Shown here: positions 1-18,288 of the stretch, in pieces | How the letters are laid out: each line of letters starts with the position of its first letter | Numbering within the stretch: position 1 is the first letter of the stretch | Virus record (IMG/VR): IMGVR_UViG_3300042291_001013 | Reading direction: 5' to 3' (one strand) | Length of the DNA stretch: 64,000 bases | Origin: a virus | Taxonomy: Duplodnaviria > Caudoviricetes | Translations under genes and position numbers: made by a program | Notes under the pieces: generated by a model | Database searches by the model: none | Seen by the model: the letters and a program-made list of their open reading frames with translations, nothing else | What the model was told of the DNA's origin: nothing

Positions 1-1653
1 GTCGTATCTCAACATAAACTGCCTTAGCCGGTCGAACATGTTATTATACTGCTTTTCTACATGCAAGTTCAAGATAGTTCGGTGAATTAAGTTCCATCCG
101 TGTATCTCAATTCCGCCAATGTTGGGGTGGCGAATCTGTCCTTGCGTCATCCAATTGGAAAAATACTGGCGCACTTCAGTTTGTTCTTTGACAAACCAAG
201 GATCCTTTTGCAAGTATTCAAACAGGTCTTCATAGAACTCACTGTAGTCAACTTCACAGTACTTGTTGACCAATCTGCTGAGCAAGGTGCTAACACCATT
301 GATGTGGAATGTGTTGATGTACCAAGAGAAAATCTCAGCATCCAACATAGTTTCAAAAGGCAAGTCCTTGGTTGACGTAATAATGTCAATGCCTTCTTCA
401 ATGTGTTCGTTTGAGTATGATCCTGAGAAATAGTCAGTCACACGTTGTGATCCAATTTTGAACAATTTTTTCTGGAGCAGATTCATCTCTGCATTTTCCA
501 ACAACTGTGCTTGGAACACTGTAAGGCCTGTGTGGTTGCCCATGCGGAACAGTTTCCAAAAATTGTCTTTCCAACTTTGCAAACTTTCGCCAGGTAATCC
601 TAGAATCAGTTCTGTATAAGTTGGAATGTTACGTTGTTCGCACAGCTCAAACACTTCTTCCAACTTGTTCATTTCCATGTTTTTTCTACGGATATTTTCC
701 AAGACGTCAACATCAAGACTCTGTACTGATAACGTAAGACCTTGGTTGAATCCTGGAGCATCAAGAAGTTTCTTGACAATGTCCACAACTTCTTTCTTTT
801 GGTTCTTTGCCCACGCCACACTGAAAGTTTTTGGGTAGCCGTACTTGCTTTGTATTTCAATAATCTTGTCTGCAATAAGGTTATCACGCTGGGGGAACAT
901 ACCAAAGTTTGCATCAGTGATACTGATAAACCCACACCGGTGTGTTGCCATCCATTCCAGTTCATCATAAACTCTTTGTGCATCAAAGTGTTTGACTTTG
1001 TTGTAGGTCAAACTGCCCCAGTCACAGAATGTACATGCAAACGGACAACCACGATTGGTTTCCAATGTACCGTTCCATTCAACGTCGGGATTTTCAGCAA
1101 CAATCTTGTCAAACACGCCTGACAAGTAAGGGCTGGGAATGTCTTCCAGGGCTTCGATACGTTTGGCATCACCAGTGTTGACTGCTTCACCATCTCGATT
1201 GACCAGCAGGCCAGGAATTTCTTCCCAGTTCTTGTCTTCAAACGCTCGGATAACTTTGCGGAATGTGATTTCGCCTTCAAAGCAAATCACAAGATCCATG
1301 TAGGATTCTTTACGGAACAGATCTTTGTCGGTGACGGCAGGTTCGGGCCCACCAAATACAATCAAACAGTTGGGGTTGCGTTCCTTGACCAGTCGAGCCA
1401 AGGTATAGTTGTACTGATGGTTCCACACATAGGTACTAAATGCCACAACATCGTTTTGCGCAAGTTTTTCAGCCAAGGGCTCCACAGCGTCTCTGCGCCA
1501 TACTATATCAGTACACTCAAAGTTTTCTTTGACCCAGGGATCGGTTAGCGCATAACTCCAAATTACTCCTGCCGAATAGGGCAGATAATGAGCGTTGAGC
1601 TCTTTGGGGCCTTGTTGAAAGTTGGGTTGTACCCATGCAATTTTGTATGTCAT
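1..1653 (-). CDS. B12-binding domain radical SAM protein (3' end truncated by window edge)
   Basis: Missing from ORF track because it runs off the window; hand-translated from ATG at 1653: MTYKIAWVQPNFQQGPKE...VAFSTYVWN...IVFGGPEP (cobalamin-binding domain) ...ETNRGCPFACTFCDWG (CxxxCxxC)...ITDANFG; open through base 1. Confidence 0.85.
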   Translation of the reverse strand, partial: MTYKIAWVQPNFQQGPKELNAHYLPYSAGVIWSYALTDPWVKENFECTDIVWRRDAVEPLAEKLAQNDVVAFSTYVWNHQYNYTLARLVKERNPNCLIVFGGPEPAVTDKDLFRKESYMDLVICFEGEITFRKVIRAFEDKNWEEIPGLLVNRDGEAVNTGDAKRIEALEDIPSPYLSGVFDKIVAENPDVEWNGTLETNRGCPFACTFCDWGSLTYNKVKHFDAQRVYDELEWMATHRCGFISITDANFGMFPQRDNLIADKIIEIQSKYGYPKTFSVAWAKNQKKEVVDIVKKLLDAPGFNQGLTLSVQSLDVDVLENIRRKNMEMNKLEEVFELCEQRNIPTYTELILGLPGESLQSWKDNFWKLFRMGNHTGLTVFQAQLLENAEMNLLQKKLFKIGSQRVTDYFSGSYSNEHIEEGIDIITSTKDLPFETMLDAEIFSWYINTFHINGVSTLLSRLVNKYCEVDYSEFYEDLFEYLQKDPWFVKEQTEVRQYFSNWMTQGQIRHPNIGGIEIHGWNLIHRTILNLHVEKQYNNMFDRLRQFMLRYD

Positions 1654-1660
1654 CAGCTAT

Positions 1661-2494
1661 TTACGCTTTTGTTTTGTGTGGGTTGGCAAACTGCACCATT
1701 TGGCTATTAACGTCGTTTTCGGCTAATCTTTGCCAGGGATCTTGTGTGCCTTTAAAAATGTTTTCAAAGAATTCTATGCTTATACCAACTGAACGCATGT
1801 ATGTGGCCAGTTTGGCACAGTCTCGGTGCCGCAAATCAATTTGTTGCACACTGTGGAAATCTCTAGGATCATCAGGCTTGCCTTCCAGCATGGGACGATT
1901 TTGAAAGATTTCGTCCCCGTTGTTGCCAGTAAGATCAAAGCGATCATGCAACACTTCAACGTTGATACGTTGATAGATGTCCAGCATGTAAGCGGTTTGA
2001 CTAACCCAACCATCCTGTGTGGGATGTGGGCTGATGTAACCAAGAATATCGTACCACTTGCGCGGTACAATAGGAAAGATGCTGTAAGGGTGCATGCGAT
2101 GAGTTTTGAAGCTCAACAGTTTGAACTGCCCTTCATAATTCATGATGGTAGTATCCCATCCTTTGCTTTCCATTACAGCATCATCATTCCAGATAACCAA
2201 CCAACGACTGCTACTACCCTTGGCCATGGCATTGTTGTACTTGTGCAGATTCACATAGCCCATGCGCTTGAAACGCATGGCTGTGTAGTTGACATCACGT
2301 GCGTCCATCCAAGGCTGAAGTTCATCCTTGAAATACTTGAATCCAACTTCGTCATCATCGTCAAACGCAAACATCAACTGAACACGACTGGGGTTGTCTG
2401 CCAGTTCAATCAAACTGCGAATACTGCGCCCAAGAATTTCTGTGCGACCACGTGTGGCCAACAGCATAGCAATATCGTATTTTGGTTCACTCAT
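1661..2494 (-). CDS. GT-A fold (GT2-like) glycosyltransferase
   Basis: N-terminal LLATRGR, AFDDDD, LVIWNDDA (DxD-like) pattern typical of GT2. Confidence 0.7.
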   Translation of the reverse strand: MSEPKYDIAMLLATRGRTEILGRSIRSLIELADNPSRVQLMFAFDDDDEVGFKYFKDELQPWMDARDVNYTAMRFKRMGYVNLHKYNNAMAKGSSSRWLVIWNDDAVMESKGWDTTIMNYEGQFKLLSFKTHRMHPYSIFPIVPRKWYDILGYISPHPTQDGWVSQTAYMLDIYQRINVEVLHDRFDLTGNNGDEIFQNRPMLEGKPDDPRDFHSVQQIDLRHRDCAKLATYMRSVGISIEFFENIFKGTQDPWQRLAENDVNSQMVQFANPHKTKA

Positions 2495-2505
2495 CTAAAA
2501 CTCCA

Positions 2506-3003
2506 TTATGCAAATAAATCTTCATTCCACTCACGGTGGCCTTCACGGAAAGCCATGTTAGCCTGCGTCTCACGTACTTCCACACGATAGCACCACAAAC
2601 GTTCTGCTTCGCCTGGCCCCCACAGTTCAGGAATGTAAACACCATTCACATACTTGTACAGCATGTCAGCAAGACCTTCGCAACCCAATCGAGGTAATAC
2701 TACCACTTTGGCCATGTTCCGCTCTTGAAGCAGTTTGTATGTAGCCATTTCTGGATCATCTTGTGCCACAATAAGTGTATGGTCAAACTGATCTTCCAAG
2801 GTCTTCTTGAGTTCTTTTAAACCACCATAGTCGGCAGCCCAGTTGCGCACATCTAGGTCATTGGTACCAAAGTAAAACTTCATACTGAATGAATATCCAT
2901 GGATCAAATTACAATGACTGTCTGCCCTCCACTGTCTATACGCACATGGAAATGCGTCGTGATACTCTTTGGTTGAGGTATATTTGTAAACTACTGGTTG
3001 CAT
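2506..3003 (-). CDS. queD: 6-carboxy-5,6,7,8-tetrahydropterin synthase (QueD/PTPS)
   Basis: SHCNLIHGYS, DYGGLKELK..LEDQFDH, GCEGLA motifs of QueD; AGGAG RBS. Confidence 0.88.
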   Translation of the reverse strand: MQPVVYKYTSTKEYHDAFPCAYRQWRADSHCNLIHGYSFSMKFYFGTNDLDVRNWAADYGGLKELKKTLEDQFDHTLIVAQDDPEMATYKLLQERNMAKVVVLPRLGCEGLADMLYKYVNGVYIPELWGPGEAERLWCYRVEVRETQANMAFREGHREWNEDLFA

Positions 3004-3074
3004 GCTGTTTCTCCTATGTTAATTATAGCATAGGCTGGCAGAGTTTGTAAAGCGGGATGAAGCCAAAGACCGCT
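3004..3074 (-). ncRNA. Candidate preQ1-I-like riboswitch / structured 5' leader of queD
   Basis: Minus strand: stem AGCGG(3074-3070)/CCGCT(3055-3051), 14-nt loop starting U and ending C, tail UUACAAAC, loop UGGC complementary to downstream GCCA; then hairpin CCUAUG/CAUAGG overlapping the RBS. Confidence 0.35.
3022..3051 (-). promoter_or_regulatory. sigma70-type promoter for queD
   Basis: TTTACA-N18-TATAAT with extended -10 TG (TGCTATAAT). Confidence 0.55.
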
Positions 3075-3086
3075 GTAAAGAACTAT

Positions 3087-3950
3087 TTACCCAAGTAATT
3101 GTGCAAGCAGTTGTTCTCTAGAGCCCAACAACGCACAATCTCTAGTTCCCCAATATTGCTTGCATTGGTCTCGAATTTTTTTAATATTTGGTTCAAACAC
3201 ATCTCGATGGTACATGTATTTTGGTCTATGCACTGTGCCGTAAATTTTGGCTTTGTTTTCTTGCATGGTTAGGGCAGTATCCCATTCTGATACAAAACTG
3301 GCCATGATCTCAGCGTTCCAATAATAAAATGCCCAGGGATGTTGGTTTGGCACCAAGGTCTCTACATAGAGGTCAGCTTCTTCCATAACAAAGCCATTGT
3401 AGTTGCCCAACACTGGTCTAAGATATTCCATCTGTTCGTGGTCAGGATAGTATTCAAGTTGAAAGCCAGACACTATGTGTCCACCTAGCTTCTGCACAGT
3501 ATCCAAGATTAAACCATGCGTCACTGTGCCATAACCAAGTCGCGGTTTAATAATCGAAGTATATTGTTTTTCTGTTTTACTGTTGGCATAGTTACCCACG
3601 TCAACCACAAGAGGTTTTATGTTGTTTTTCTTGCACCATTGTTGCGCCCACCACATTTCTAATTTTTGATCATTGTGGCGAGTTGCATCGTATGTTATCA
3701 AGATTGGGGTAAACGGAATACCCATGCGCAAAAACGTGTTGGCAACGTTTTCACTGTCACTGCCACCACTCATGGTAATGTATAAATTTTTATGTGTGCT
3801 ATATATTTCTTCGGCCACGCGGTCGCAAGCAGTGTTAAAGGGCAAGAGCTCTTTGGCCCGGCTGTTGATTTTGACTGCAATGTTTTCAGGACCTTGTCTA
3901 GTAGGTAGTCCGTCCCAGGATAAATCAATCCAGGAATCTTTACAGAGCAT
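3087..3950 (-). CDS. PP-loop (adenine nucleotide alpha-hydrolase) protein, possible atypical QueC-like enzyme
   Basis: LYITMSGGSDSE = SGGxDS PP-loop; lacks the C-terminal Cys zinc cluster of canonical QueC. Confidence 0.6.
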   Translation of the reverse strand: MLCKDSWIDLSWDGLPTRQGPENIAVKINSRAKELLPFNTACDRVAEEIYSTHKNLYITMSGGSDSENVANTFLRMGIPFTPILITYDATRHNDQKLEMWWAQQWCKKNNIKPLVVDVGNYANSKTEKQYTSIIKPRLGYGTVTHGLILDTVQKLGGHIVSGFQLEYYPDHEQMEYLRPVLGNYNGFVMEEADLYVETLVPNQHPWAFYYWNAEIMASFVSEWDTALTMQENKAKIYGTVHRPKYMYHRDVFEPNIKKIRDQCKQYWGTRDCALLGSREQLLAQLLG

Positions 3951-4761
3951 TACGCATCCAATCTCTGTGATGTTGTTTTAATTCGTCAATGTTATCGGTA
4001 GCTGGTGCTAGAATATTTTTGGCCAACGCACGATCTTGTTCCCACGCTGTTTCCCAAACAATACTGTTGTTGCTCCAGTCCAGCATACTGTATCTGGTGT
4101 CACGATATTTGTACACCTGCACTCGGCTACCTTGTGGATCGGGCAGTGCTACTGTTACAAACAATGCACCTGGTTGCCACTCAATCATGGTACCTGGATA
4201 AACTGCCATCCAACAAGCCGACATATTGTATTTTAAGTCATCTTCGTGAAGGTATTGATTGTCTTGCACTGGTACAATTTGCAAACTGCCATTGCTGAAC
4301 AGGCTCCAGTGCAACTCTTCAACAGTGGTAATACCAATCTTGTCATACACACCCGGATGTGCTACTGGAATGTGCTCGATGTCCAAGAACACATCCATTA
4401 CAACGTTGGGTGCGGCTTGCACAATGTCTTCACGCTGTTGCATCAACTGCATGTGCTGGGTGTCAATGGGAAACACACAGTCAACATGCTGGTCAAACAA
4501 CATGGTTTGATTTGCATAACACGGCAAAGTTTCTAACTCAAGCTCATGATCAATACCTTTACCGGCTAATGAGTATTCAAGACCATGATAAGGACATTTT
4601 AAATGCTGTGTTGGCTCACAGGCAATGCGACTGTTTTGATGTGGGCAAACATTGCTGATCATGTAAAATTGATCAACATGAGCAAGACAGAGATTTTTAT
4701 TGTGTTGCTCTAACGGCTTTACAGTATGATTGGCAACATCTTGTTTGAGCGCAAGAAACAT
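3940..4761 (-). CDS. Rieske non-heme iron oxygenase (ring-hydroxylating/CntA-like alpha subunit)
   Basis: CPH-x14-CPYH Rieske motif; DVFLDIEHIPVAH mononuclear-iron motif; distal WEQD. Start moved to MFLALK at 4761 to abut upstream gene. Confidence 0.8.
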   Translation of the reverse strand: MFLALKQDVANHTVKPLEQHNKNLCLAHVDQFYMISNVCPHQNSRIACEPTQHLKCPYHGLEYSLAGKGIDHELELETLPCYANQTMLFDQHVDCVFPIDTQHMQLMQQREDIVQAAPNVVMDVFLDIEHIPVAHPGVYDKIGITTVEELHWSLFSNGSLQIVPVQDNQYLHEDDLKYNMSACWMAVYPGTMIEWQPGALFVTVALPDPQGSRVQVYKYRDTRYSMLDWSNNSIVWETAWEQDRALAKNILAPATDNIDELKQHHRDWMRNAL

Positions 4762-4762
4762 A

Positions 4763-5164
4763 TTAGGGTTGTTGGTATCCAGGTTTGTGATAGTTGGCCT
4801 GACCAGCAACGACCCCACGAACGCCGCCTACGGGATCTGCACAATCGCCCGCACGTCTTGGAATAAGATGCACATGCGGGTACATCACTGTTTGTCCAGC
4901 CACTTCACCTATATTTACACCAACGTTGAAGCCTTGGCATTGTCCAGTTTCTACCAGTTTGCGTCCAATAAGCCAAGCATTGCCCATGGCTACTAAAATA
5001 TGTTCGTCGCTGTTTTCTCGTGGCACAAACAACAAGTGGCCCTGTGTGACTGGATAACGATCCTGATACACCATGATGTGTTCGTTACACAGTTCGTCAA
5101 CTGCAAAGTCCCAAGGCGCTACGCCATTGGCCTGTGCCATTTTTAAGTTAGCATATCTTATCAT
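4763..5164 (-). CDS. HIT family nucleotide hydrolase
   Basis: YPVTQGHLLFVPR, GFNVGVNIGEVAGQTVMYPHVHLIPR. Confidence 0.88.
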   Translation of the reverse strand: MIRYANLKMAQANGVAPWDFAVDELCNEHIMVYQDRYPVTQGHLLFVPRENSDEHILVAMGNAWLIGRKLVETGQCQGFNVGVNIGEVAGQTVMYPHVHLIPRRAGDCADPVGGVRGVVAGQANYHKPGYQQP

Positions 5165-5838
5165 GAATTTCTCCGGTATATGGGTAAACAGTATTTAGAG
5201 TCATTAAAAACTGTGTGTTTAATTCTAAGTTCCATCCTGGTTTTGCCTTTGTAGATTTTGATATCCACAAGAGCAGGATCAGCTATGCTGGTCACCTGCA
5301 TGCTTTCACGATTGAATTTACAAGACTCTGCTAGATAACCAACAGGTGTGTCTTGCACTTGAAATCCAGCAATAGAACATTCCAGAGTGTCTTTGTTTCT
5401 AAATATCACCAACAAATAATAGTTTTTAATTGTCCGTGCCTTAGCGAGCCAGCCATCCACAAACATCTGCCACAGCGCCAGCTTGTCTTGTGTTCGAAAA
5501 TATTCAGCCACACGCTCAACCTGCAAGTATTGATACATGCTGGCTTCTGTGGTTGACCGTACACCCATCTGCACACTCTTGACATCAAATCCAATGTCTT
5601 CGCCGACCTGCACATCAATAATACTTTTGCCAGCACCACACCAAGTGGCACCGTCAATACTGTCAGCCACAGCATATTCCCAAAGCTCTTTGCCTAGGCT
5701 CAGTGGGCGACCTTGATCTAGATATTTTTTCAATGGCTGCAACACTGCATCCATTTCTTGTTGAAACCTAGCTACAAAGTCCTTGCCCAAGATCTGTTGT
5801 GTTTGTTCAACAGTCATTGGCACAAGACAGTAGGTCAT
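5161..5838 (-). CDS. Putative PD-(D/E)xK restriction-endonuclease-like nuclease
   Basis: GKELWE helix followed by IIDV...GFDVKS (E...D...DxK geometry). Confidence 0.45.
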   Translation of the reverse strand: MTYCLVPMTVEQTQQILGKDFVARFQQEMDAVLQPLKKYLDQGRPLSLGKELWEYAVADSIDGATWCGAGKSIIDVQVGEDIGFDVKSVQMGVRSTTEASMYQYLQVERVAEYFRTQDKLALWQMFVDGWLAKARTIKNYYLLVIFRNKDTLECSIAGFQVQDTPVGYLAESCKFNRESMQVTSIADPALVDIKIYKGKTRMELRIKHTVFNDSKYCLPIYRRNS

Positions 5839-6578
5839 CGTGGTGCAAAGTCCTGTTGTAGTTTGATATTGTCAAAGAATTCCTTCTTTACACTTTGGTC
5901 AGTTTTAAATAACCCACGGAGTACTGTTGTTTGGGTAAGACTACTGTGAGCCATAATACCACGATTCTCGCAACATCCATGGGTAGCCTGAATATAAACT
6001 GCCACATCCTTTGATCCGGTTGCAAATTCAATCTCACGAGCAATGTCCATACAGAGTTCTTCTTGTAGTGTTCCTCGTCTTGCGCACCACTGCGCGATCC
6101 GAGTGTACTTGGATAAACCAATGAGTTTGGGGCCAGCAATGATTCCAATATAAGCCACACCCGCAACAGGTTGGTGATGATGGCTACACATGCTCTTAAG
6201 CTCTGAACGCACCACAAGCATACCGTCGTATGCTCCGTCCGTATCGTTCGGGAAAGCCGTAGCATTAGGGCTCGTCTCATAACGGCCAGACATGATTTCG
6301 TTGAAGTACATTTTAGCAAGACGCCGGGCCGTGCCTTGTGAGTTTGGGTCATTTTCTCTGTCAATTAGTAGTGCGTCAAGTACACCTTCAAACGCTGTTG
6401 TGGCTTCATTGATTAGTTGCTCTTTCATTGACTCGTCAATGTACTCGCTAACGTTATCGCCAGCCCAGAATCTTTTTCCATCACGTTTGAACTTAAAGCG
6501 AAGGTGATCGCAAACTTTGCCTAGGCCGTAGCCACCGTCTCCAGCCATTGCGTCTAGTGCTGTTTCTTTATTTGTCAT
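5835..6578 (-). CDS. folE: GTP cyclohydrolase I
   Basis: TARRLAKMY, SMCSHHHQP, IGLSKYTRI, LQEEL, HGCCENRG. Confidence 0.95.
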   Translation of the reverse strand: MTNKETALDAMAGDGGYGLGKVCDHLRFKFKRDGKRFWAGDNVSEYIDESMKEQLINEATTAFEGVLDALLIDRENDPNSQGTARRLAKMYFNEIMSGRYETSPNATAFPNDTDGAYDGMLVVRSELKSMCSHHHQPVAGVAYIGIIAGPKLIGLSKYTRIAQWCARRGTLQEELCMDIAREIEFATGSKDVAVYIQATHGCCENRGIMAHSSLTQTTVLRGLFKTDQSVKKEFFDNIKLQQDFAPR

Positions 6579-6579
6579 G

Positions 6580-7167
6580 TTAGTCCTTGATAGTGATTGT
6601 TCTTAAATCTGGATAGTTAACTTGTCGAGGTGACGGGCAGTGTTCTTTAAGTCCTTCCAGCATTGCAATACCTTGTATAGCTTCTTCTGGTGTGGGCTTG
6701 TAGTGATAGCCAACTCTAAATTCTTTTTGACTAATCCAGGGTTTGATATTTAGATCACGCCCATCATACCGCATACGAATAATTGCATCGTATGCTGCCT
6801 TGTCATCTAACAGTATAGCACCTCCACGGCCTATATGTAAAGGCTTGTCATGCCCAAAACTCAGGCATTGTATCTGTCCCAGTCGATACATATTCTTTTC
6901 TAGCCTACGAGCACTATCCCAGATACGTGTGCCATGAAGACGGTACTCGCCTGTCCATTCTTCCTCTTTGTAGTAATACTTGATTCCCAATTTGTGCATG
7001 GTCATAGCAATGCTCAAATATGTGTAAGGAGTCATCACAACTTCTTTCACCCGGTCATGCCGCAAACACAGCTCAATAGCATGTGTACAGCAATCGGTCA
7101 TGACGGCATAAGGGGCACCAGTAAACTCTGCCAGTGCGTCTTCAAACTGTTTGATTTTTTCGAACAT
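6580..7167 (-). CDS. Short DegT/DnrJ/EryC1/StrS PLP-dependent sugar aminotransferase
   Basis: FEDALAEFTGAPYAV..DCCTHAIEL, DSAR, CLSFGHDKPL (PLP Lys), GRGGAIL; only 195 aa. Confidence 0.78.
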   Translation of the reverse strand: MFEKIKQFEDALAEFTGAPYAVMTDCCTHAIELCLRHDRVKEVVMTPYTYLSIAMTMHKLGIKYYYKEEEWTGEYRLHGTRIWDSARRLEKNMYRLGQIQCLSFGHDKPLHIGRGGAILLDDKAAYDAIIRMRYDGRDLNIKPWISQKEFRVGYHYKPTPEEAIQGIAMLEGLKEHCPSPRQVNYPDLRTITIKD

Positions 7168-8101
7168 ACCAATTCCATGCGTGTTGTATCATGTCATCAA
7201 GCTCAAAGTTACGCCAATGAACCAGTTTGTTAAATTTGTCTGCACAGGCAGTGAGAACAGGGGGATCGCCTTCGCGACGAGCTTCTACACCAATGTAAGG
7301 CGTTTTGCCGATGATAGTTTTTGCCTGCTTCATTACTTGTATAACACTGAACCCCTGATTTGATCCAAGGTTATAGATGCCTGCAGGAACAGTTGGAGAC
7401 AATGCCAAAACGTGTGCTTGAGCAATATCTGCAACATGTACATAATCCCTGATGCAAGTACCATCAGCAGTAGGATAGTTATCACCATATACTCTAAATT
7501 GTCCATCGTCTCTTGTGGCTTCTAAAAACCGAGCAATCAAGTGTGTGGCACCCGGTTCTTGTCCGTGCCTACCTTTGGGGTCAGCACCACAGGCATTGAA
7601 GTAGCGAAAGCTAACATAGTTTAGATTATATGCTTGGCGATAAGACTCCAACATCATATCAATCATCAACTTGCTCTCACCATAGGGACTGATAGGCAAG
7701 CAAGGATCAACTTCGTTGCAGGCATCTAGCACAGGATTGCCATAAGTTGCGGCACTGGAACTAAAAATAACTTTGCAACGTGGCAAACTACGACGTACAA
7801 CGTCCAGCAGTCGCAACGTCTTGACCACATTGTTGTTGTAGTATTCTGCAGGATCCTGCATTGACGGCCCAACAAGGCTGGTGCCAGCACAGTGGATAAT
7901 AGCATTGGGTTGTTTGCTGATAATCCAACTTAATGCCGCATCGCTAGCAAAATCTTCACGCAAGAATCCATCACAAACATCTGCCAAGTGTCGTGGCGGT
8001 GACCTACGATCAATGCCGTACACCGAGTGCCCCGAATCTTTCAATAACAGAGCAGTTTGTCCACCAATGTATCCAGCCGAGCCGGTGACAATTACATTCA
8101 T
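7142..8101 (-). CDS. galE: UDP-glucose 4-epimerase (NAD-dependent SDR)
   Basis: VIVTGSAGYIG, FSSSAATYG, PYGESK (YxxxK), FRYFNACGA, TCIRDYVHV, RREGDP; start at MNVIV. Confidence 0.92.
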   Translation of the reverse strand: MNVIVTGSAGYIGGQTALLLKDSGHSVYGIDRRSPPRHLADVCDGFLREDFASDAALSWIISKQPNAIIHCAGTSLVGPSMQDPAEYYNNNVVKTLRLLDVVRRSLPRCKVIFSSSAATYGNPVLDACNEVDPCLPISPYGESKLMIDMMLESYRQAYNLNYVSFRYFNACGADPKGRHGQEPGATHLIARFLEATRDDGQFRVYGDNYPTADGTCIRDYVHVADIAQAHVLALSPTVPAGIYNLGSNQGFSVIQVMKQAKTIIGKTPYIGVEARREGDPPVLTACADKFNKLVHWRNFELDDMIQHAWNWYVRKNQTV

Positions 8102-8281
8102 CCTTGTTTCCTTTGTGGATAATAGTAGTGGCATTCATGACGATAAGGATACCAATCTCCTGCCATGCCACCCAAGTGTTGTAACGCACACCGAGCTCGA
8201 TCTTCTGTCTCATTCATTTTGGCAATCCAAGGCGTTGCTTTTTGAGCCACAATATACTGCTTGAGATAGCTAAAACTTTGT

Positions 8282-8419
8282 TCACGAGGCAACATATCTG
8301 CCTTGACTCCTACGCCACACAACATCAAATGTATTGGGATTTAACATGACTTCCCAACCTTGAGGAATGTGCTCAGGGAACAGACTTGTTTTGCCGTTGC
8401 TGTGTTTGTATAGTTTCAT
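8282..8419 (-). CDS. Small hypothetical protein (45 aa)
   Basis: Hand-read MKLYKHSNGKTSLFPEHIPQGWEV...; ATGA overlap with upstream GT gene; TAAATA at 8441-8446. Confidence 0.5.
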   Translation of the reverse strand: MKLYKHSNGKTSLFPEHIPQGWEVMLNPNTFDVVWRRSQGRYVAS

Positions 8420-9630
8420 TCTTCGATCTTTACAACATGATATTTAGGTTCGGCAACATGGTCACGGTAACGGTTGCCTGCGCGGTTATATTGCTCACCA
8501 TTTCCAGAAATGATATCAACAACCCGGTCAATACATCTGTTATTCCAATCACTAATGAGACCCATGTTGTGATGAGGTGCTCTAAGAAGGTTTTGTAGTT
8601 TGTGATAGGCATCGTCTATGCTCCATGGTACGTAAAGCCGATTAGGGTCATTTGCAAAAGTTTCAGGGAAACTGCGATAAGCAGGATATAGAACGTTGGC
8701 TCCGAGGGTATCTGCTTCACTGACAGTGTTTGAGACCCAATCTTGTAGAGCACAATTAAACAACACACGAGTATTGTTAAGGTGAGCATAGTATTCGTTC
8801 TTTGTGATGTTATCGTAGATTTTTAGTTTGCCTTCCGCCTCCATACGGCGGGCACGTTCAATATACTCTGGGTTATTGGATCGTAGAGGTCCGCCACTGT
8901 ATATTGCAAACTCACACGGCTCGCTGGTGAGCTCACTATACATTTCAATAAGATCCATGAAGAAGCCAGGTTGCTTTTCCTGATCAAAACGAGCCGCGAA
9001 GCCGACTCTACGGGCACGTTGAACAAAGGGCGTGATGTTTTCCACGCCACCGATCCGCTCCAGTACTTCTGATTTGCCAAATGCAAGACCGGAAATGTTG
9101 TAAATCGGAGCAGTCCATCCAGCAATGCGCATGTGCGCGACCATTTCCTCATTGGTTGCCAGTACTGCACCCCCCGAGAAAGCCACCATCTCATTGACCA
9201 TTTGTTCATACAGTCCCATCCACTTCTGTAGACCCCACACATGCACAAAGTCATCAGGGTCAATGGCCTGTGCCAAACAACGTACATAGATACGTGGACA
9301 TTGTTCACGGGGAATCTGGTTCATGATGTAACCAAGACTTTCAAAGCCCGGCTGAAACATGTCTTCAAAGTAGATCACATCTTGACTAGTTACGTCGCCG
9401 TTCTTCATCATCTGAACCAAGTTCATCATCTGGCTCATGGCAAAGTAACTGCGGCCATGTGCGTCTAGTACTTGGCCTACCGAGATAGCTTGTGTGTTGT
9501 CAATTGTGGTGCCAGGAACATACACAACATCTAGGCCTCGACGTTCAAACACCCGTCGATTCCACTCAGTTAGCTGTAGTGTGTAACGGGCTTCGTAACT
9601 TTCCAAGCCCATGTAGTATAGTTTTCTCAT
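8416..9630 (-). CDS. GT-B fold glycosyltransferase
   Basis: VGFAARFDQEKQPGFF, VLFNCALQDWVSNTVSEA, YPAYRSFPE: GT-B C-terminal donor-binding pattern. Confidence 0.75.
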   Translation of the reverse strand: MRKLYYMGLESYEARYTLQLTEWNRRVFERRGLDVVYVPGTTIDNTQAISVGQVLDAHGRSYFAMSQMMNLVQMMKNGDVTSQDVIYFEDMFQPGFESLGYIMNQIPREQCPRIYVRCLAQAIDPDDFVHVWGLQKWMGLYEQMVNEMVAFSGGAVLATNEEMVAHMRIAGWTAPIYNISGLAFGKSEVLERIGGVENITPFVQRARRVGFAARFDQEKQPGFFMDLIEMYSELTSEPCEFAIYSGGPLRSNNPEYIERARRMEAEGKLKIYDNITKNEYYAHLNNTRVLFNCALQDWVSNTVSEADTLGANVLYPAYRSFPETFANDPNRLYVPWSIDDAYHKLQNLLRAPHHNMGLISDWNNRCIDRVVDIISGNGEQYNRAGNRYRDHVAEPKYHVVKIEE

Positions 9631-9851
9631 TAAAATCTACCCGCCAATCTGCGAGTATCTTCGTCCCACATGTTCTTGGCATTCTTGTTTTGTGAATATT
9701 TGTTATACTGTTGCCAAGCATAACTCTTGAAGTTGTACAAGTCAGCCTCGTTGTAACGATAACCGTAGTCTTGACAGAACTCTCGGTACTGCTCGAGATG
9801 CTCAAAGATCTCAGCCACACGGGGATTAGAGCGGAGTGTGGGTTTTCCCAT
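9630..9851 (-). CDS. Hypothetical protein
   Basis: 73-aa ORF tightly coupled to neighbours. Confidence 0.7.
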   Translation of the reverse strand: MGKPTLRSNPRVAEIFEHLEQYREFCQDYGYRYNEADLYNFKSYAWQQYNKYSQNKNAKNMWDEDTRRLAGRF

Positions 9852-9862
9852 TTTATTTTCCT

Positions 9863-10315
9863 TTAGATTTTAACTGACATACTAGGGTGAGAAATTTCAT
9901 ATTTGATCAAGGCACCGTTCTCACCATCTTCGGCAACCTCAATCCAGACTGCGCGGTCAGGATACCTTTCGGCAATCTGCAAGTACAGATCGTCTGAGAT
10001 CATTTCACAACTTTTAAAATCTAGTTGCAGGATGTCTCTGTTATATAGACCTTCCAACCAGCGTTTAAACTGAATAAATTCAATGTCTCGATCGTTGTGA
10101 AATACATCAATCCAAACACGGAAGTGAAAGATATGTCTATGTGCATTGGCTAGGAAGCTAACATCATACTCGCCTGCTGTGCATAGATTAGGATCTGTAG
10201 CGGCAGCAGGGTACTTGTGTATTCCTTCCTTGCGGAAAGTGACCCAGATTTTACGTTCTGCTCGGCTCATGATTCTCTCACGCTGTTCTGCTAGTGCTTG
10301 ATCTCGTTGATTCAT
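9863..10315 (-). CDS. Second QueD-like T-fold protein (possible DpdL-type paralog)
   Basis: AHRHIFHFRV, DRDIEFIQFKRWL, SCEMISDDL resemble QueD HxH / DF..LK / ScE motifs; lacks the QueD CxxxHGH arrangement. Confidence 0.55.
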   Translation of the reverse strand: MNQRDQALAEQRERIMSRAERKIWVTFRKEGIHKYPAAATDPNLCTAGEYDVSFLANAHRHIFHFRVWIDVFHNDRDIEFIQFKRWLEGLYNRDILQLDFKSCEMISDDLYLQIAERYPDRAVWIEVAEDGENGALIKYEISHPSMSVKI

Positions 10316-10815
10316 AATTTTTGATCCTGTTTATAATCATCCCACGAAGTAAATGTTCTACGGCTCATTAAGCTATGTAGACTATGACACCAGACCCCAG
10401 GATTGGTTGCCGCAAAGTCTTTGTCATCTATTTTTAACATTGTATTATAATTCCACAGCTTTGTATACGGTACACTTACTCGAATTTGTGGAATAAAATT
10501 TTGATAGTCGCAAAGAGGACCATCGTTAAACTCTTCCACGTGCGTGATTGGGATATCCAAACTGCACAAGTGGCCGTCACGCAAGAATGGCTCGATCATG
10601 CTTTCCCAATGTTGCCATTCTGATCTGTCAACAGGATGAAAACTGTGGTTAGCACCAAAGAAAATGTGTTCACACTGTTCATTGGCTAGATGCTGTTTGA
10701 TTTCAGTATAAGATTGAACTCCAACTACAAACAGTGTCTTTTTACCAAATGCTGGTGTGCGTTCAACTTCAGTGCCTACAAAAAAGTTGACGTTGTCGTG
10801 ACCTTCGCGGTTCAT
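10312..10815 (-). CDS. Hypothetical protein between dpdA-like and T-fold genes
   Basis: 167-aa ORF with ATGA overlaps on both sides. Confidence 0.75.
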   Translation of the reverse strand: MNREGHDNVNFFVGTEVERTPAFGKKTLFVVGVQSYTEIKQHLANEQCEHIFFGANHSFHPVDRSEWQHWESMIEPFLRDGHLCSLDIPITHVEEFNDGPLCDYQNFIPQIRVSVPYTKLWNYNTMLKIDDKDFAATNPGVWCHSLHSLMSRRTFTSWDDYKQDQKL

Positions 10816-12425
10816 TGTGTTGCTTCTAATTGATCAAGTTTATCGGTATCCAGATCCTCGGGTTCGGTCTCTGGCTCTTCAAAGCTAAACAATGCATTAA
10901 ATTGTGTACGTGCGTTCATGGTCTTCTTGCCTTTAAACCCACGTGTGCCCACAATCTGCATCCAGTAGCCACTGTACAATTGTATGATATCTTCGGCAGT
11001 TTGTCTATCCGGTGCGGCAAAAATAGCTTCCACAATGTCTTCAAAACGAGCATAGTCTCCCCCATCTCTGCGCATCATGGCCGGATGTTCTCCACGATCA
11101 AAACGCTGATTGGCTTCTTGTACCGCAGTTAGGTGCATCCAAACATTGTGTCCCATGAGCAGAGCATAGCTAAAACTATCCCAGGATGTTTTGCCCCACT
11201 TGCCGTTTTTGTTAACATCAGGCAACACATCATACAATGCAGGGTCTTGAAAGTTTGCTGGGGTAAGAGTAACGCCGGGTTTTGGAACGCCCGACTTGTA
11301 GATACAAATATCCTTCATGGTCAACATGTCACTTATAGGACTGTCAGTCCAGTTAGGATAGATACCGTCTGCAACAACGCCAGTGCTCCACTTGCGAGTG
11401 TCTGTGCTGTACTTTTTGTCATCGGCTGAAGGAGCCATACGATAACTCCACTTTGAATCATGTTCAAATACATTTTCGTAGTATACTTGTCCATTGGCTG
11501 TGGCAAGGAATGGGCTGGCACAATCAAAGGAAATAGTAAAAGCCGGGTTAACGTATTTTCTAACTGCCCTTTGAATCACGGTGAGTAGCACAGCCCATTC
11601 CAACTTTGATGTTCCCAAAAAGTGCATCCAGTCATGTTTGCCCTCTTGTAACAAATTATCGTAGCGCAAGGCAACTAGTCGGCGTAACACCAGGTGAACG
11701 TCGCACATGTTCTGACCACCCATGCTCCACCCATTGAAGTGAGTGTCTGGATACTTTACTGGGTCACAATATTCCTTCATGATCTCATACCATTCGTCTG
11801 CACTGGTATGATTGTCACCTTGCAGTACATTTAGAATCTTGGTGCCACCATTGGCAACACCTTTACGATGCTTCATGAAGTATTCGTTGTTGAACTTGGT
11901 GGCATCCACTGCTTCTTGCAGTGTGGAGATTTGACAGGCCTTGCTTGCTGTCTTGTCATGAATAACCCAAGTCGGAATATCCAGTGTCATGCAGTAATCA
12001 GAAACGTTGTCTAGCCAGTTAAGAACTAACTCACGTTTCTTTTGAGCCTTGGCACACCCCGAGTTGGCTCGCCAATCACCTTCCCACAAGCCCTTGGCAA
12101 TCTGGAAACCGCCTGAATCTCCCAAGAGAAACGTGCCTGGCTCACGGTTCCGTACCATGTCTTCTGACCAATCTTGTTTGTTAAGATCAAGATTAGCATG
12201 GCCCCCAGATGCAAGTGACCAACGATAAGGAAACAACGCCTTGTTGGAATTAAGCCAGTTAAGCTGTTCTATATCAGCAAGTCCCTGAGGGAATCGTGCT
12301 GGATCCACATAGTGTTCGTTCCTTTGCCGTCCCACAAATGTGGCATAGAATCCCGAGATGGCTGGAAGGAACACAGCGTAGTCTGATTGTTTGGCGGTGA
12401 GATTGTCTTGAGTTGGTTCTGTCAT
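10812..12425 (-). CDS. dpdA: tRNA-guanine transglycosylase-like protein, probable DNA 7-deazaguanine insertase (DpdA family)
   Basis: TGT motifs LGDSGGFQ, TLDIP, VLQG, GWSMGG, HFLG, SFDCASP (catalytic Asp), distal HN; no CxCxxC zinc motif; clustered with folE/queD. DNA rather than tRNA target is inferred. Confidence 0.78.
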   Translation of the reverse strand: MTEPTQDNLTAKQSDYAVFLPAISGFYATFVGRQRNEHYVDPARFPQGLADIEQLNWLNSNKALFPYRWSLASGGHANLDLNKQDWSEDMVRNREPGTFLLGDSGGFQIAKGLWEGDWRANSGCAKAQKKRELVLNWLDNVSDYCMTLDIPTWVIHDKTASKACQISTLQEAVDATKFNNEYFMKHRKGVANGGTKILNVLQGDNHTSADEWYEIMKEYCDPVKYPDTHFNGWSMGGQNMCDVHLVLRRLVALRYDNLLQEGKHDWMHFLGTSKLEWAVLLTVIQRAVRKYVNPAFTISFDCASPFLATANGQVYYENVFEHDSKWSYRMAPSADDKKYSTDTRKWSTGVVADGIYPNWTDSPISDMLTMKDICIYKSGVPKPGVTLTPANFQDPALYDVLPDVNKNGKWGKTSWDSFSYALLMGHNVWMHLTAVQEANQRFDRGEHPAMMRRDGGDYARFEDIVEAIFAAPDRQTAEDIIQLYSGYWMQIVGTRGFKGKKTMNARTQFNALFSFEEPETEPEDLDTDKLDQLEATQ

Positions 12426-12775
12426 GTTACTAAGTGCTGTGCTAATACCATACAGCTAATCCAAACCCATATAGTGTTAAATCCTACCAAGGTTGGTAAT
12501 AGTTTTTTCTCACTAGCCCAGATAAGTGTTAGGCTTGTTGCTAGAGTAAAGAAATATAACCACCAAAGGCTAATACCAAATATCAAACCAGGAATAATGA
12601 TAACAGCCTTGGCTGTCCAACTAGCAAACTCTACAGTATTGTAGTCAGTCCAGTATTCCTTTGTAAACCACATGCCATAGCATTCTTTAATCTTATCAAA
12701 CCCAATGTGGCGATATACAGCACCACACAGAACCAAGAACGCTAAACAAGCGGATAATATTTGTACGTTATTCAT
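12422..12775 (-). CDS. Small multi-pass membrane protein
   Basis: Several hydrophobic segments in 117 aa. Confidence 0.7.
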   Translation of the reverse strand: MNNVQILSACLAFLVLCGAVYRHIGFDKIKECYGMWFTKEYWTDYNTVEFASWTAKAVIIIPGLIFGISLWWLYFFTLATSLTLIWASEKKLLPTLVGFNTIWVWISCMVLAQHLVT

Positions 12776-13497
12776 TATTTAGATTGCGCCGGAAGGATGT
12801 AATTGTAAACAGCCAAGCCAGAATCCACAGTGATCTGTGCGGCACCGTCATCGCTGATGCGCACAACTTTGTCACCAGTCAAGTCCATGATGCTGACAAA
12901 CTGTTTGGCAGGCCATGACCATGTGCGCTTCAATGCACCATTCACTCCGGGATGGAACACAAAGTTACCTGAGTGCGTTGAATGGTCACCAAAGAAAAAT
13001 TTCAAGTCGCTGTTTTCAGTCTTGGCTTGAAAGTTGGGCTCTTCAGCGTTGGCGCTCATCTGCCACTTCAGTCGCTGAATAGCGGCATTGGTGGGTTCAA
13101 ATTCAATGTGCCAAGGCACAGCTCGCATCTTGGCAGTTTTCAACTTGTCATTCACAATGCCAGCTGACATAAAACGATAGTTGTTTTTGAAGTCGCCCAC
13201 TTTGTTTTCAAAGCTGATGCCGTCAGGATCACCACTTGATCCGCGTGTGATAGCAAGTGTGGCATTTTCTTTGTATTCTTGCAAGTTCAACAAAGTTTTA
13301 AGTTTGCTCAAGTTAGGCATACCAAATGTGCCAATAAAGTCTGCTACAGGGTTTTTAAATTCAGCCTGCACAACCACGCTGAGGTCTTCAGCTAAGCCGC
13401 TGACAGTGGTGGTATTTGTATCTCCAACAATTTTGATCAGGTCAATGCAACCAAGATCAAAAGTGTGTTCAACCAAGTCTAATAGATAATCTTTCAT
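12775..13497 (-). CDS. Probable DNA polymerase sliding clamp (gp45/PCNA-like)
   Basis: 240 aa, beta-rich, ends ..AAQITVDSGLAVYNYILP; two genes from PolB; AGGAG RBS. Confidence 0.6.
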   Translation of the reverse strand: MKDYLLDLVEHTFDLGCIDLIKIVGDTNTTTVSGLAEDLSVVVQAEFKNPVADFIGTFGMPNLSKLKTLLNLQEYKENATLAITRGSSGDPDGISFENKVGDFKNNYRFMSAGIVNDKLKTAKMRAVPWHIEFEPTNAAIQRLKWQMSANAEEPNFQAKTENSDLKFFFGDHSTHSGNFVFHPGVNGALKRTWSWPAKQFVSIMDLTGDKVVRISDDGAAQITVDSGLAVYNYILPAQSK

Positions 13498-13516
13498 ACA
13501 GTTCTCCTAAGTGTGT

Positions 13517-13545
13517 AGTATAAGGGTTTTATTTGGTTTTTGCAA
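13517..13545 (-). promoter_or_regulatory. sigma70-type promoter upstream of clamp gene
   Basis: TTGCAA-N17-TATACT. Confidence 0.55.
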
Positions 13546-14473
13546 CCAGTTTGGCTAATGCTTGCCCGCCTTTGAGGCTGGTAAGTTCGCCAGGCTTTCG
13601 AAATTCAATCCAACTGACATCGCCAGCGCCGTCATGTGAATAAACATATTCCCAACCAATTCGGTCAGCATGCTGTCTAATATAACGCTGTGGTGTGTAG
13701 CACATAAAAAATCTTTCACTTAGTCCAGCGCCTTGCTCTCGGTCAGCATTGTTGTAAGTAAAGATCACATGGCCGCCGGGTCTGCATTTTACAAACAGCT
13801 CATTGAGATAACGTTCAATAACAGACATAGGTTTGTAGTTGAAGAAGTTGTAGGCAAATACCAAGCCAAACGAGTTGTTGGGCAAGTCATCTAAAATGTT
13901 GGCTTCTCGACGATCATCAATGATATATTGTCTTAGGCGGCGTTGATACTCTGGCGTGAACTGTTGCACAGCAGGATCCAATAGCTCTTGATGATGATCC
14001 ACCACGTACAGTGGATCCAGTGGCACTAGTTCTTCAATGTAGTTTTCTCGGCCTGGCCTAAAAATCAATCCTGGATGGTGCCAGTCTGCTAGATTGCGCA
14101 AGTGACTGCGCAGAATCATGTTGCTGTCGGGATCAATACTTAGTCTACGATCCAGGATGTACTGATTGGTTTCAAACGGCATCTCATGATCAAAAATGCG
14201 CTGACTTTCTCTAAAGTATTCGCCTTCCATGTCTGCACGTTGATTGTACAGACGCTCGTGCAAGGTGTTTAGAGTGCGACCATAGACATCAATAGAGGCC
14301 AACACGTCTTGATAGTTACGCTCTAGTTCTTTGGCAGTAACTCCTATTTGTATAGGATGAGTGGTTACTCTTTCAAGCACAGCTTCAAGATTGCGCATGG
14401 CAGGGCGACACGCAACATCAGCTTTGATGCTGTCTAACAAATTTAAATATGCAACAATTTCACTTAACTTCAT
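13529..14473 (-). CDS. Class I SAM-dependent methyltransferase with N-terminal helical region
   Basis: LYVVD, LPNNSFGLVFAYNFFNY, CRPGGHVIF. Confidence 0.65.
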   Translation of the reverse strand: MKLSEIVAYLNLLDSIKADVACRPAMRNLEAVLERVTTHPIQIGVTAKELERNYQDVLASIDVYGRTLNTLHERLYNQRADMEGEYFRESQRIFDHEMPFETNQYILDRRLSIDPDSNMILRSHLRNLADWHHPGLIFRPGRENYIEELVPLDPLYVVDHHQELLDPAVQQFTPEYQRRLRQYIIDDRREANILDDLPNNSFGLVFAYNFFNYKPMSVIERYLNELFVKCRPGGHVIFTYNNADREQGAGLSERFFMCYTPQRYIRQHADRIGWEYVYSHDGAGDVSWIEFRKPGELTSLKGGQALAKLVAKTK

Positions 14474-17130: not shown

Positions 17131-17190
17131 TGTTCTCCGTTTGTGGCCGGGTGGGCCTTGCTACATGCTCGTAATGTGAGCGACTCTTTG

Positions 17191-18288
17191 TTACTTATCA
17201 GTGTCAACAAAGTAATTGTTAATTTTGCCTTGGCGATTCAAATCATTGGTTATGCAGTGTATGCCAGCGTCCCAGAAGTATCGATGACGGAAATTAGAAA
17301 CATGTACTTCAATACCATGTCTGGCACAAGCCTGTTCGACTTGATCGTTGTGTGAACTTACCACAATGTTCTTTTGATCTATCACAAGTATGTTAACATC
17401 AAAAACAGTTTCGCTTGCGTTGCCGACCCAGGACTCAAAGTAGTGTTCTACTATATGCACAAGATCAGGATCTGATTCAAAGCCCGGAATGTTCCAACGT
17501 CCACGATTGTGCTTCATGCTGGATCTAAATTCAGCAGTGTCGGCATAGGTAGACGCTGGAAGATACACCACCTCCCAGTCAGGAAATGTATCCGAATAAG
17601 TAGGAACGTCACGTAAACTTATGATCAGACCCGGCGTCACTGGACAATAGGTGCTATCGCCGTGACCGCCGGCGTTGACAATTTTGTTGCGGGTATTGGG
17701 AAACTGTTGATTGATACGTGTCAACATCATGCTTTGATCTTCATCATAACTTTGTGTGGCAAAGTATAAGTCTTGTCCAATTCTGCTGACAAAACATCCA
17801 GACACCACATCAAGATCAGTGTATCGCACTTGATTGCCCTGATCATGAACGTCTTGAAAAATATTTTGATAACATGCCAATTTAGACCGATGCTGATCTA
17901 GGTCACGTGCCTGGAATGTAGCTAAGTCTAGCTCAGACTGATTGGAAAAAACCCGGTGTGCATGACTACTATTGGGACTTCTTGGAATCCACAACTGATC
18001 ATGAATCATAACAAAGTAATCCCTGGGTGTCACAGGTGGGGCATTCCAGCGTCCATGACATTTTAAACTATTGGAATCAGCAGGTATTTCGGGACGCAGG
18101 ACTTGAATGCCAAATTGCCCTTGTAATAATTGTATCAACGACTGAAAGTCTTGTTCAGTTTCATCTGCCAACTGTTCAAAATGCCGTCGTGTGTTGGCAT
18201 TTTGTATCCACGAATAGAATTCTGGAGGATAACTTTTGCCTACCACACATACTTGCAGTGGATCCCAATGCTGAAACACCGAATACAT
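17191..18288 (-). CDS. Amidinotransferase (pentein) family protein
   Basis: HWDPLQVCVVG, PRDYF, GGHGD (His), DAGIHCIT (Cys) as in glycine amidinotransferase. Confidence 0.75.
   Translation of the reverse strand: MYSVFQHWDPLQVCVVGKSYPPEFYSWIQNANTRRHFEQLADETEQDFQSLIQLLQGQFGIQVLRPEIPADSNSLKCHGRWNAPPVTPRDYFVMIHDQLWIPRSPNSSHAHRVFSNQSELDLATFQARDLDQHRSKLACYQNIFQDVHDQGNQVRYTDLDVVSGCFVSRIGQDLYFATQSYDEDQSMMLTRINQQFPNTRNKIVNAGGHGDSTYCPVTPGLIISLRDVPTYSDTFPDWEVVYLPASTYADTAEFRSSMKHNRGRWNIPGFESDPDLVHIVEHYFESWVGNASETVFDVNILVIDQKNIVVSSHNDQVEQACARHGIEVHVSNFRHRYFWDAGIHCITNDLNRQGKINNYFVDTDK

Follow-up and report, generated by a model that had tools for sequence, protein, structure and literature searches.

The question raised by this locus is whether a phage can place a sugar on a 7-deazaguanine base in its DNA. 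The locus occupies positions 1-12425 of a 64,000-nucleotide stretch (the window), which is the reverse strand of bases 41755-105754 of the 128,034-bp IMG/VR virus record IMGVR_UViG_3300042291_001013 (estimated 34% complete). Here, genes for the synthesis and insertion of a deazaguanine, including those for a divergent protein with the tRNA-guanine transglycosylase (TGT) fold and for a homologue of DpdL, the proposed 7-carboxy-7-deazaguanine (CDG) decarboxylase, are interleaved with genes for a GT-B-fold glycosyltransferase (GT-B) and for sugar-modifying enzymes (Table 1). A first-pass annotation of the sequence had suggested that the inserted base may be glycosylated. In our analysis, genomic context gives good support to a role of the GT-B in the deazaguanine pathway, and this GT4-type GT-B family is almost exclusive to DpdL modules. 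The linkage thus upholds the pathway role, whereas the sugar on the base is what we infer from the near-exclusive and reciprocal association of the GT4 family with these modules. Judging from gene content, we see roughly even chances that the DNA of this phage contains a glycosylated 7-deazaguanine with a tailored sugar that varies from strain to strain.

Eight deazaguanines have been described in phage DNA, none of which bears a sugar, and every deazaguanine-modified phage so far has DpdA, with the modifications being read as post-replicative (PMC10516641). The literature that we searched contained no published description of a sugar-bearing deazaguanine in DNA or of a glycosyltransferase in a DpdL module. 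To our knowledge, all known DNA glycosylations are on pyrimidines. In T4 alpha/beta-glucosyl-5-hydroxymethylcytosine and related modifications, the sugar sits on a hydroxymethyl- or hydroxy-pyrimidine, with the acceptor hydroxyl provided by a ThyA-family or TET enzyme. The present locus resembles these T4-type systems in having a phage GT-B-fold enzyme encoded beside base-modification genes, in the strain variability of its sugar genes and in a presumed escape from host nucleases, and it differs from them in that the acceptor would be a purine analog without an obvious hydroxyl.

Evidence that the GT-B belongs to the deazaguanine module comes from two scans of distant loci. One was centred on DpdL and covered 80 loci with TGT-like proteins 35-86% identical to that of the window; the other was centred on the GT-B and covered 80 loci with relatives of the phage ACP17 GT-B (22-38% identical to the ACP17 protein). 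A GT-B homologue is present in 63 of the 80 DpdL-centred loci, nearly always no more than 4 kb downstream of DpdL, and is missing in just 4 of the approximately 67 loci that have at least 4 kb of downstream sequence. Conversely, the GT-B-centred loci contain DpdL in 72/80 and FolE in 68/80 cases. Thus, the link between the glycosyltransferase and the dpdA-type genes that the first-pass annotation had drawn extends to distant phages, where the GT-B is reciprocally tied to DpdL/FolE modules. This is also evident in cultured phages: the GT-B gene lies between the TGT-like gene and dpdL in both the Pseudomonas jumbo phage PA5oct (Wroclawvirus) and ACP17, it lies just before the annotated TGT gene, itself followed by dpdL, in Xanthomonas phage BUDD, and it follows dpdL in Sinorhizobium phage Phosso and Synechococcus phage BUCT-ZZ01. 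The BUCT-ZZ01 GT-B is 64% identical to that of the window, and genes for QueE, a phosphoribosyltransferase (PRTase), QueD and FolE are found upstream. A Gpt-like PRTase recurs as well, being present in the window phage, in BUCT-ZZ01, in PA5oct and in 23 of the 80 DpdL-centred loci.

In close relatives the linkage includes the sugar genes. This set comprised 80 IMG/VR and two JGI loci with TGT-like proteins 73-91% identical to that of the window, among which 32 loci have at least 9.5 kb of downstream sequence. The core gene order is TGT-like, c167 (a 167-aa conserved partner), DpdL, a small open reading frame (ORF), GT-B, GalE, a short DegT-like protein, FolE, HIT, QueD and GT-A. Specifically, all 32 of these loci have c167, DpdL, GT-B, GalE and the short DegT downstream of the TGT-like gene, which confirms the proposed linkage of the sugar genes to dpdA at this distance, and FolE, HIT and GT-A fall within the flank in 30/32, 26/32 and 20/32 loci, respectively. 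The interleaving that had been taken as evidence therefore stands for these core genes, but the genes called nuclease, Rieske and PP-loop proved to be strain-specific or rare inserts. Other relatives carry variable sugar-tailoring inserts of their own, including a TylCIII-like C-methyltransferase, twitch-type and other radical SAM enzymes, short-chain dehydrogenases/reductases (SDRs) and a class I methyltransferase. A 282-aa radical SAM protein encoded after the GT-B gene in relatives was considered as a candidate QueE and is instead a twitch/SPASM-type enzyme.

The enzyme that would place the base in DNA is the 537-aa TGT-like protein. Searches of Pfam, PHROG, NCBIfam and PDB sequences gave no match to it, and the curated Pfam models for TGT (PF01702) and DpdA (PF23859) matched neither this protein nor any other part of the 128-kb record; among 82 members of the TGT-like family a single one touched PF01702, at 0.0087. 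Its AlphaFold2 (AF2) model (pLDDT 90.9) was compared with the PDB using Foldseek, and the matches listed (50 of 180 with E <= 0.001) are all tRNA-guanine transglycosylases, with E about 2e-7, probability 1.00 and TM-scores by target of 0.46-0.55. Viral shape matches include the Motura TGT, an nt-1 protein and a phiST protein. An exhaustive search returned 924 representative relatives, and an alignment of 82 diverse homologs shows D103-S104-G105-G106-x-Q108, H268 and D301 in every sequence and D149 in nearly all. The family profile pairs DSGGfQ / LDvP / LqG with DSGGYQ / FDES / QQG of the Z. mobilis TGT, an alignment by which D301 would correspond to the nucleophile Asp. The dpdA-like call is thus borne out, as the TGT fold and the catalytic DSGGFQ motif are both kept, and since none of the Pfam models match, we conclude that this is a TGT-superfamily enzyme of a new branch that lies outside the Pfam TGT and DpdA models. 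The protein has relatives in cultured phages, as indicated by an hhalign probability of 96.6% against the presumed DpdA of ACP17, a TGT-like protein of 424 aa whose gene adjoins dpdL, by 37% identity to PA5oct EST35_0316, and by a family profile that detects the ACP17 and, weakly, the nt-1 proteins. An assignment to DpdA3 was rejected, as the same profile detects nothing in CP220 or phiST. We regard the protein as a candidate for the exchange of guanine in phage DNA for a deazaguanine because its TGT active site is intact, because it is encoded beside PolB and because the DNA of PA5oct contains a modified G.

The identity of the predicted base follows from the 150-aa T-fold protein. Its T-fold assignment is correct and can be refined to DpdL, given an identity of 57.5% to ACP17 DpdL and of 35% to phiST gp040 (DpdL) and given that its motif L-A-N-A-H-R-H-I-F (FLANAHRHIFHF) represents the DpdL signature LxxxHRHxF, which replaces the CxxxHGH of QueD-like proteins. 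This signature aligns across the DpdL-like proteins of ACP17, phiST, PA5oct, BUDD, Phosso and BUCT-ZZ01, and the genomic context is also that of DpdL, with TGT-like, FolE, QueD and QueE genes and no QueC gene. Both the signature and the function of DpdL as a CDG decarboxylase, which is a prediction, are from published work (PMC10516641). By analogy, the homologue in the window is proposed to decarboxylate CDG to 7-deazaguanine (DG), and with the T-fold protein recognized as DpdL the predicted base is 7-deazaguanine.

The remaining pathway genes are congruent with this prediction. The first-pass annotation had seen no canonical queE, queC or queF in the window. A divergent QueE is in fact encoded just outside of it, whereas the absence of the other two holds for the entire 128-kb record, where QueF has no match and QueC has just weak PP-loop-level matches under the cut-off. 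QueC also has no match at E <= 0.01 in a complete 352,754-bp relative with terminal repeats, so the pathway should stop at CDG/DG. A set of FolE, QueD and QueE that lacks QueC has been published as the hallmark of DpdL-type pathways ending at CDG or 7-deazaguanine. In addition, three 90-100% complete relatives gave no match to the ThyA family or to Tet_JBP, the latter search having been run without a positive control, which indicates that none of the pyrimidine sugar-acceptor routes searched for is present. A sugar on hydroxymethyl pyrimidines was rejected as an explanation on these grounds.

Two conserved small proteins accompany DpdL. The c167 gene is found in 78 of the 82 related loci, and in ACP17 it lies upstream of the TGT-like (presumed dpdA) gene, so that its linkage to the TGT-like and DpdL genes is nearly as faithful as that of the GT-B. 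The protein carries invariant His, Glu and Asp residues and has no family match in any library searched, Atlas included, with a PDB profile search yielding only repeat-protein artefacts. It is neither a stripped-down QueE (hhalign probability 0.9%) nor a counterpart of the Phosso 'glycosylase' (0.2%). Together with the 73-aa protein encoded between dpdL and the GT-B gene, it may create an acceptor group or help the exchange enzyme.

In regards to the glycosyltransferase itself, its GT-B fold is now backed by an AF2 model (pLDDT 73.8) with two Rossmann domains, whose nearest shape matches in the PDB and AFDB are BshA, MshA and PimA; these, together with sucrose-phosphate synthase and WaaG, match with E-values of 2e-9 to 1e-7 and TM-scores of about 0.6. 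The donor-site motifs R..EKxP and (E/D)x7E are kept without exception in six phage lineages. At the sequence level there is no Pfam match at E <= 0.01 (Glycos_transf_1 or related), and the sole sign is a weak NCBIfam GT4 match at 0.019. The T4 AGT structure is a generic GT-B match (rank 48). A GT-B enzyme that adds a sugar to a 7-deazaguanine derivative in nucleic acid, as proposed here, is exemplified by the tRNA-queuosine glycosyltransferases (QTMAN/GTDC1, QTGAL), and QTMAN_N clusters are among the language-model-feature look-alikes of the phage GT-B (Atlas, score 0.97). QTMAN uses the cyclopentenediol hydroxyl of queuosine as its acceptor, whereas the pathway of the window phage cannot make queuosine.

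The genes that could supply and tailor the sugar are of uneven standing. GalE is firm, as its TIGR01179 score of 298.6 bits exceeds the NCBI curated cut-off of 262.3, in agreement with the earlier call. The DegT aminotransferase call holds only in part: there is a Pfam DegT match and the pyridoxal phosphate (PLP) lysine is kept, but the protein is half-size and does not have the full-length fold. It aligns to WbpE residues 36-103 and 168-217, where full-length DegT proteins have about 360-390 aa, and it is without approximately 65 internal residues and without the N- and C-terminal parts of the usual sugar aminotransferases. Its SFGHDKPL aligns with WbpE SFFPSKPL, which we take to hold the PLP lysine K185, and its size is conserved at 195-201 aa in relatives. 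The Rieske oxygenase and the PP-loop ATPase are rare accessories and not part of the core, with Rieske being present in just 2 relatives, each time paired with the PP-loop gene. The best PDB matches of the Rieske protein are the saxitoxin hydroxylases SxtDIOX and SxtT (2e-5), with the methylxanthine demethylase NdmA being far weaker (E 0.4). The PP-loop protein was also considered as QueC and rejected, since the record-wide QueC search gave no match there; it has weak TilS_N and weak NAD-synthetase matches.

Comparisons with two phages bear directly on the interpretation. Cellulophaga phage phiST encodes FolE, QueD, QueE, DpdL and DpdA3, and its DNA carries 2'-deoxy-7-deazaguanosine (dDG) (Cui, Hutinet et al., NAR 2023, PMC10516641). 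The window phage is like phiST in having FolE, QueD and QueE without QueC, a DpdL with LxxxHRHxF, a TGT-superfamily exchange enzyme encoded next to the replication genes, and a MazG-like gene nearby. It is unlike phiST in that the phiST exchange enzyme is DpdA3 while the 537-aa enzyme belongs to a different branch, and in that phiST is without the GT-B, GalE, DegT-like, GT-A, PRTase and c167 genes that are all present in the window phage. When dpdL and dpdA of ACP17 were expressed in E. coli no dDG was formed, and the authors suspected that enzymes were missing (PMC10516641). PA5oct has the arrangement PolB ... TGT-like (37% identical) - GT-B - DpdL - ... - PRTase-like - QueE - ... - RNase H, as does the window phage, and differs by having a short Rossmann-fold protein in place of GalE, the short DegT, GT-A, the B12 radical SAM enzyme and the nucleotidyltransferase, and by a GT-B that is about 23% identical to that of the window. 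The DNA of PA5oct resists cutting at G-containing restriction sites and is cut by nucleases that target hypermodified DNA, its modified G being unidentified (PMC12191111), and PA5oct had already been listed with a deazaguanine synthesis and incorporation system (Iyer et al. 2021).

Taken together, the module would be a DpdL-type 7-deazaguanine DNA modification system that is extended by a dedicated glycosylation branch. FolE, QueD and QueE would convert GTP to CDG, a chemistry taken from the established pathway for the enzymes identified here, and the DpdL homologue would, according to the published prediction, convert CDG to 7-deazaguanine. The divergent TGT-fold protein would then replace guanine by the deazaguanine base in the phage DNA, and the Gpt-like PRTase probably returns the released guanine to the GTP pool that feeds FolE. 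The GT-B may put a sugar on the deazaguanine, either as the free base before insertion or in DNA afterwards. GalE, the half-size DegT, GT-A, the B12 radical SAM enzyme and the nucleotidyltransferase may make the donor sugar, tailor it and possibly attach a further one. The tailoring set varies between strains, as expected if the modification is under selection by host nucleases. Further support for a sugar on the base is provided by the absence of ThyA and TET matches in complete relatives and by the failure of ACP17 dpdL and dpdA in E. coli. In its most specific form, which we hold tentatively and somewhat short of even, this would be the first sugar-bearing purine in any DNA, made by a new-branch transglycosylase and a dedicated GT4 enzyme, with the acceptor arising through c167 and the 73-aa protein or bypassed by direct C-/N-glycosylation, and with a custom, strain-variable sugar that is epimerised, aminated or C-methylated and possibly a disaccharide.

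Several observations weigh against a glycosylated base. The main weakness is that 7-deazaguanine has no hydroxyl and no obvious sugar acceptor, so that either c167 and the 73-aa ORF create one, or a C-/N-glycoside is formed, or the sugar goes elsewhere. The sole DpdL phage with measured dDG, phiST, carries no GT-B, so the base alone can be made without a glycosyltransferase. The matches of the GT-B are to generic GT4 enzymes, and it has neither a Pfam QTMAN_N (PF12038) match nor a QTMAN row in the shape search. The half-size DegT may have an activity other than that of an aminotransferase, or none, another glycan pathway could instead be what GalE and the tailoring enzymes supply, and the linkage of GalE and DegT is weaker in distant lineages, as among loci with TGT-like proteins less than 50% identical GalE homologues occur in 8/17 and the short DegT in 0/17. 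Finally, unrelated variable genes also accumulate in the block, for example that for the Bax-inhibitor-1-family membrane protein found within it in some relatives (Pfam 1.6e-53, L055:13161-13859), and because it gathers unrelated cargo the interleaving alone is weaker evidence than it appears. The phiST result, the missing acceptor and the unrelated cargo all favor an alternative in which the DNA contains plain dDG or another sugar-free derivative, with the GT-B and the sugar genes acting on a virion protein, the host envelope or a metabolite and being co-located through shared expression timing. This alternative is a serious one that we nonetheless judge unlikely, as it fits poorly with a GT-B that is tied reciprocally and almost exclusively to DpdL/FolE, including modules with TGT-like proteins only 35-40% identical and genomes ranging from tens of kb to >400 kb, and that is wedged between or beside the dpdA-like and dpdL genes. 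A general-purpose glycosyltransferase would not be held to so fixed a location.

Two other routes are less probable still. In toyocamycin and tubercidin biosynthesis a PRTase converts a deazaguanine-type base to the nucleotide, and the recurrence of the Gpt-like PRTase, along with HIT and MazG-like genes in or near the cluster and a phiST MazG gene that adjoins DpdL, would suit a pre-replicative scheme in which the PRTase makes a deazaguanine nucleotide, HIT and MazG-like proteins deplete dGTP, PolB incorporates the analog and the TGT-like protein has a secondary function, for instance on tRNAs of the phage. We consider this scheme improbable, given that no member of the module is more constant than the TGT-fold gene, whose product keeps all of its catalytic residues, that the PRTase is equally explained as salvage of released guanine, that the scheme leaves the GT-B unexplained, and that all known deazaguanine phages have DpdA and are read as post-replicative (PMC10516641). 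The other route is a soluble glycoside that never enters DNA, either a glycosylated pterin made by FolE, a PTPS-like enzyme, an SDR and a GT4, or a deazapurine glycoside acting on the host. Cyanobacterial biopterin glucoside is made via FolE, a PTPS-like enzyme, an SDR and a GT4, and the natural products huimycin and dapiramicin are N2-glycosylated 7-deazaguanines. Genes for FolE, for SDRs and for an enzyme of the PTPS family are indeed present and the GT-B model matches the pterin glucosyltransferase BGluT (5zer, TM 0.65), but this match is no better than many other GT4 matches, the core members QueE, DpdL and the TGT-fold enzyme with its intact active site point to base exchange into nucleic acid, and genes of replication (PolB, RNase H) surround the cluster. 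A soluble product is accordingly very improbable.

If correct, the glycosylated 7-deazaguanine would add a new class to the bases that occur naturally in DNA. It would also explain the failure of dpdL and dpdA alone in heterologous tests, would probably identify the modified G of the therapy-relevant phage PA5oct, and would give modification-dependent nucleases and DNA glycosylases new substrates and yield new DNA-labelling enzymes, namely a divergent DNA transglycosylase and a purine-directed glycosyltransferase. Since homologous modules are present in cultured phages, the question is directly testable. What the window adds to these modules is the richest sugar-supply and tailoring set seen with them, strain-level variation within a very abundant lake clade, and the new TGT branch.

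Table 1. Genes and sites of the deazaguanine-sugar cluster and its surroundings (window positions; L004 positions for features beyond the window start).
Feature	Position	Strand	Match or remark
B12-binding radical SAM C-methyltransferase (KedN5 family), N-terminal 551 of 669 aa	1..1653	-	NCBIfam NF033712 1e-79; full ORF at L004:103-2112, crossing the window edge
Probable GT-A glycosyltransferase, 277 aa	1661..2494	-	sole basis phrog_14945 glycosyltransferase, 1.3e-9
QueD, 6-carboxytetrahydropterin (CPH4) synthase, 165 aa	2506..3003	-	Pfam PTPS 2e-15; phrog_2389 QueD-like 6e-36
Best sigma-70-like promoter match	3022..3051	-	TTTACA-18-TATAAT, extended -10, 11/12; in the gap before queD (3004-3089)
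PP-loop ATPase, 287 aa	3087..3950	-	SGGSDS motif; present in 5 relatives
Rieske non-haem iron oxygenase, 292 aa	3940..4818	-	Pfam Rieske 5e-8
HIT (HinT-like) protein, 133 aa	4763..5164	-	Pfam HIT 7e-8; NCBIfam HinT 2.5e-12
Strain-specific ORF, 225 aa	5161..5838	-	singleton versus 82 related loci
FolE, GTP cyclohydrolase I, 247 aa	5835..6578	-	Pfam 2e-39; NCBIfam FolE 1e-40
Half-size DegT-like protein, 195 aa	6580..7167	-	Pfam DegT 1e-18 in two short stretches
GalE, UDP-glucose 4-epimerase, 330 aa	7142..8134	-	TIGR01179
GT4-type GT-B glycosyltransferase, 404 aa	8416..9630	-
Small ORF between dpdL and the GT-B gene, 73 aa	9630..9851	-	tblastn matches in 70/82 related loci
DpdL-family T-fold protein (proposed CDG decarboxylase), 150 aa	9863..10315	-	phrog_17812 at 2e-35
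c167, conserved partner, 167 aa	10312..10815	-	overlaps each neighbour by 4 nt
Divergent TGT-fold protein, candidate DpdA-like DNA guanine transglycosylase, 537 aa	10812..12425	-
ORF upstream of the TGT-like gene, 117 aa	12422-12775	-	absent from all 82 related loci
PolB	14470-17130	-	gene intact in the window phage
QueE (divergent)	L004:3211-4056		2.3 kb beyond the window start
Rest of B12 radical SAM, Gpt-like PRTase, two DUF6071 proteins	beyond window base 1
RfaE-domain-II-like sugar-1-phosphate nucleotidyltransferase	beyond window base 1
RNase H/5'-3' exonuclease, MazG-like protein	beyond window start

The cluster forms a single packed co-directional array on the minus strand, downstream of the phage PolB gene, and extends approximately 6.4 kb past the window start. 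All of the genes named in the first-pass annotation are real minus-strand ORFs at their positions. Its description of tight packing applies to most junctions, which overlap by 1-56 nt or have gaps of less than 12 nt, but not to galE and queD, which are preceded by larger gaps of 281 and 83 nt, respectively. The gap before queD was also considered as a site for a preQ1 riboswitch and rejected, as positions 1-17500 gave no Rfam match at E <= 1; a promoter-like site is found there instead. The 225-aa ORF, previously called a nuclease, has no family match in the Pfam, PHROG and NCBIfam searches. It is translationally coupled to folE and HIT, and the 117-aa ORF is likewise coupled to the TGT-like gene. 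These two ORFs look like recent strain-specific insertions, because neither has a counterpart in any of the 82 related loci.

The region had no megablast match among GenBank phages. The nearest relatives of its PolB are in the jumbo phages Phosso, Atu_ph07, PA5oct and the Rak2-like group, contigs of close relatives measure 340-365 kb, including the 352,754-bp genome (rated 100% complete), and the phage DNA is present in at least 24 lake-water metagenome runs. We therefore conclude that the source is an abundant, uncultured freshwater jumbo phage of roughly 350 kb. Metagenomic near-relatives of its TGT-like protein number >7,000. In the annotation of PA5oct, a Hef-like homing endonuclease interrupts the PolB homologue (L001:5605-10831). 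The same contig as the cluster also encodes, approximately 17 kb beyond the window start, a 537-aa FAD-dependent protein of the tryptophan-halogenase family (Pfam 2.8e-52, L004:17278-18891), and TctC-like and DctP/TRAP solute-binding proteins are encoded near the contig end along with the halogenase (L004:15031-16053; L005:4228-5202), a cargo that is unusual for a phage.

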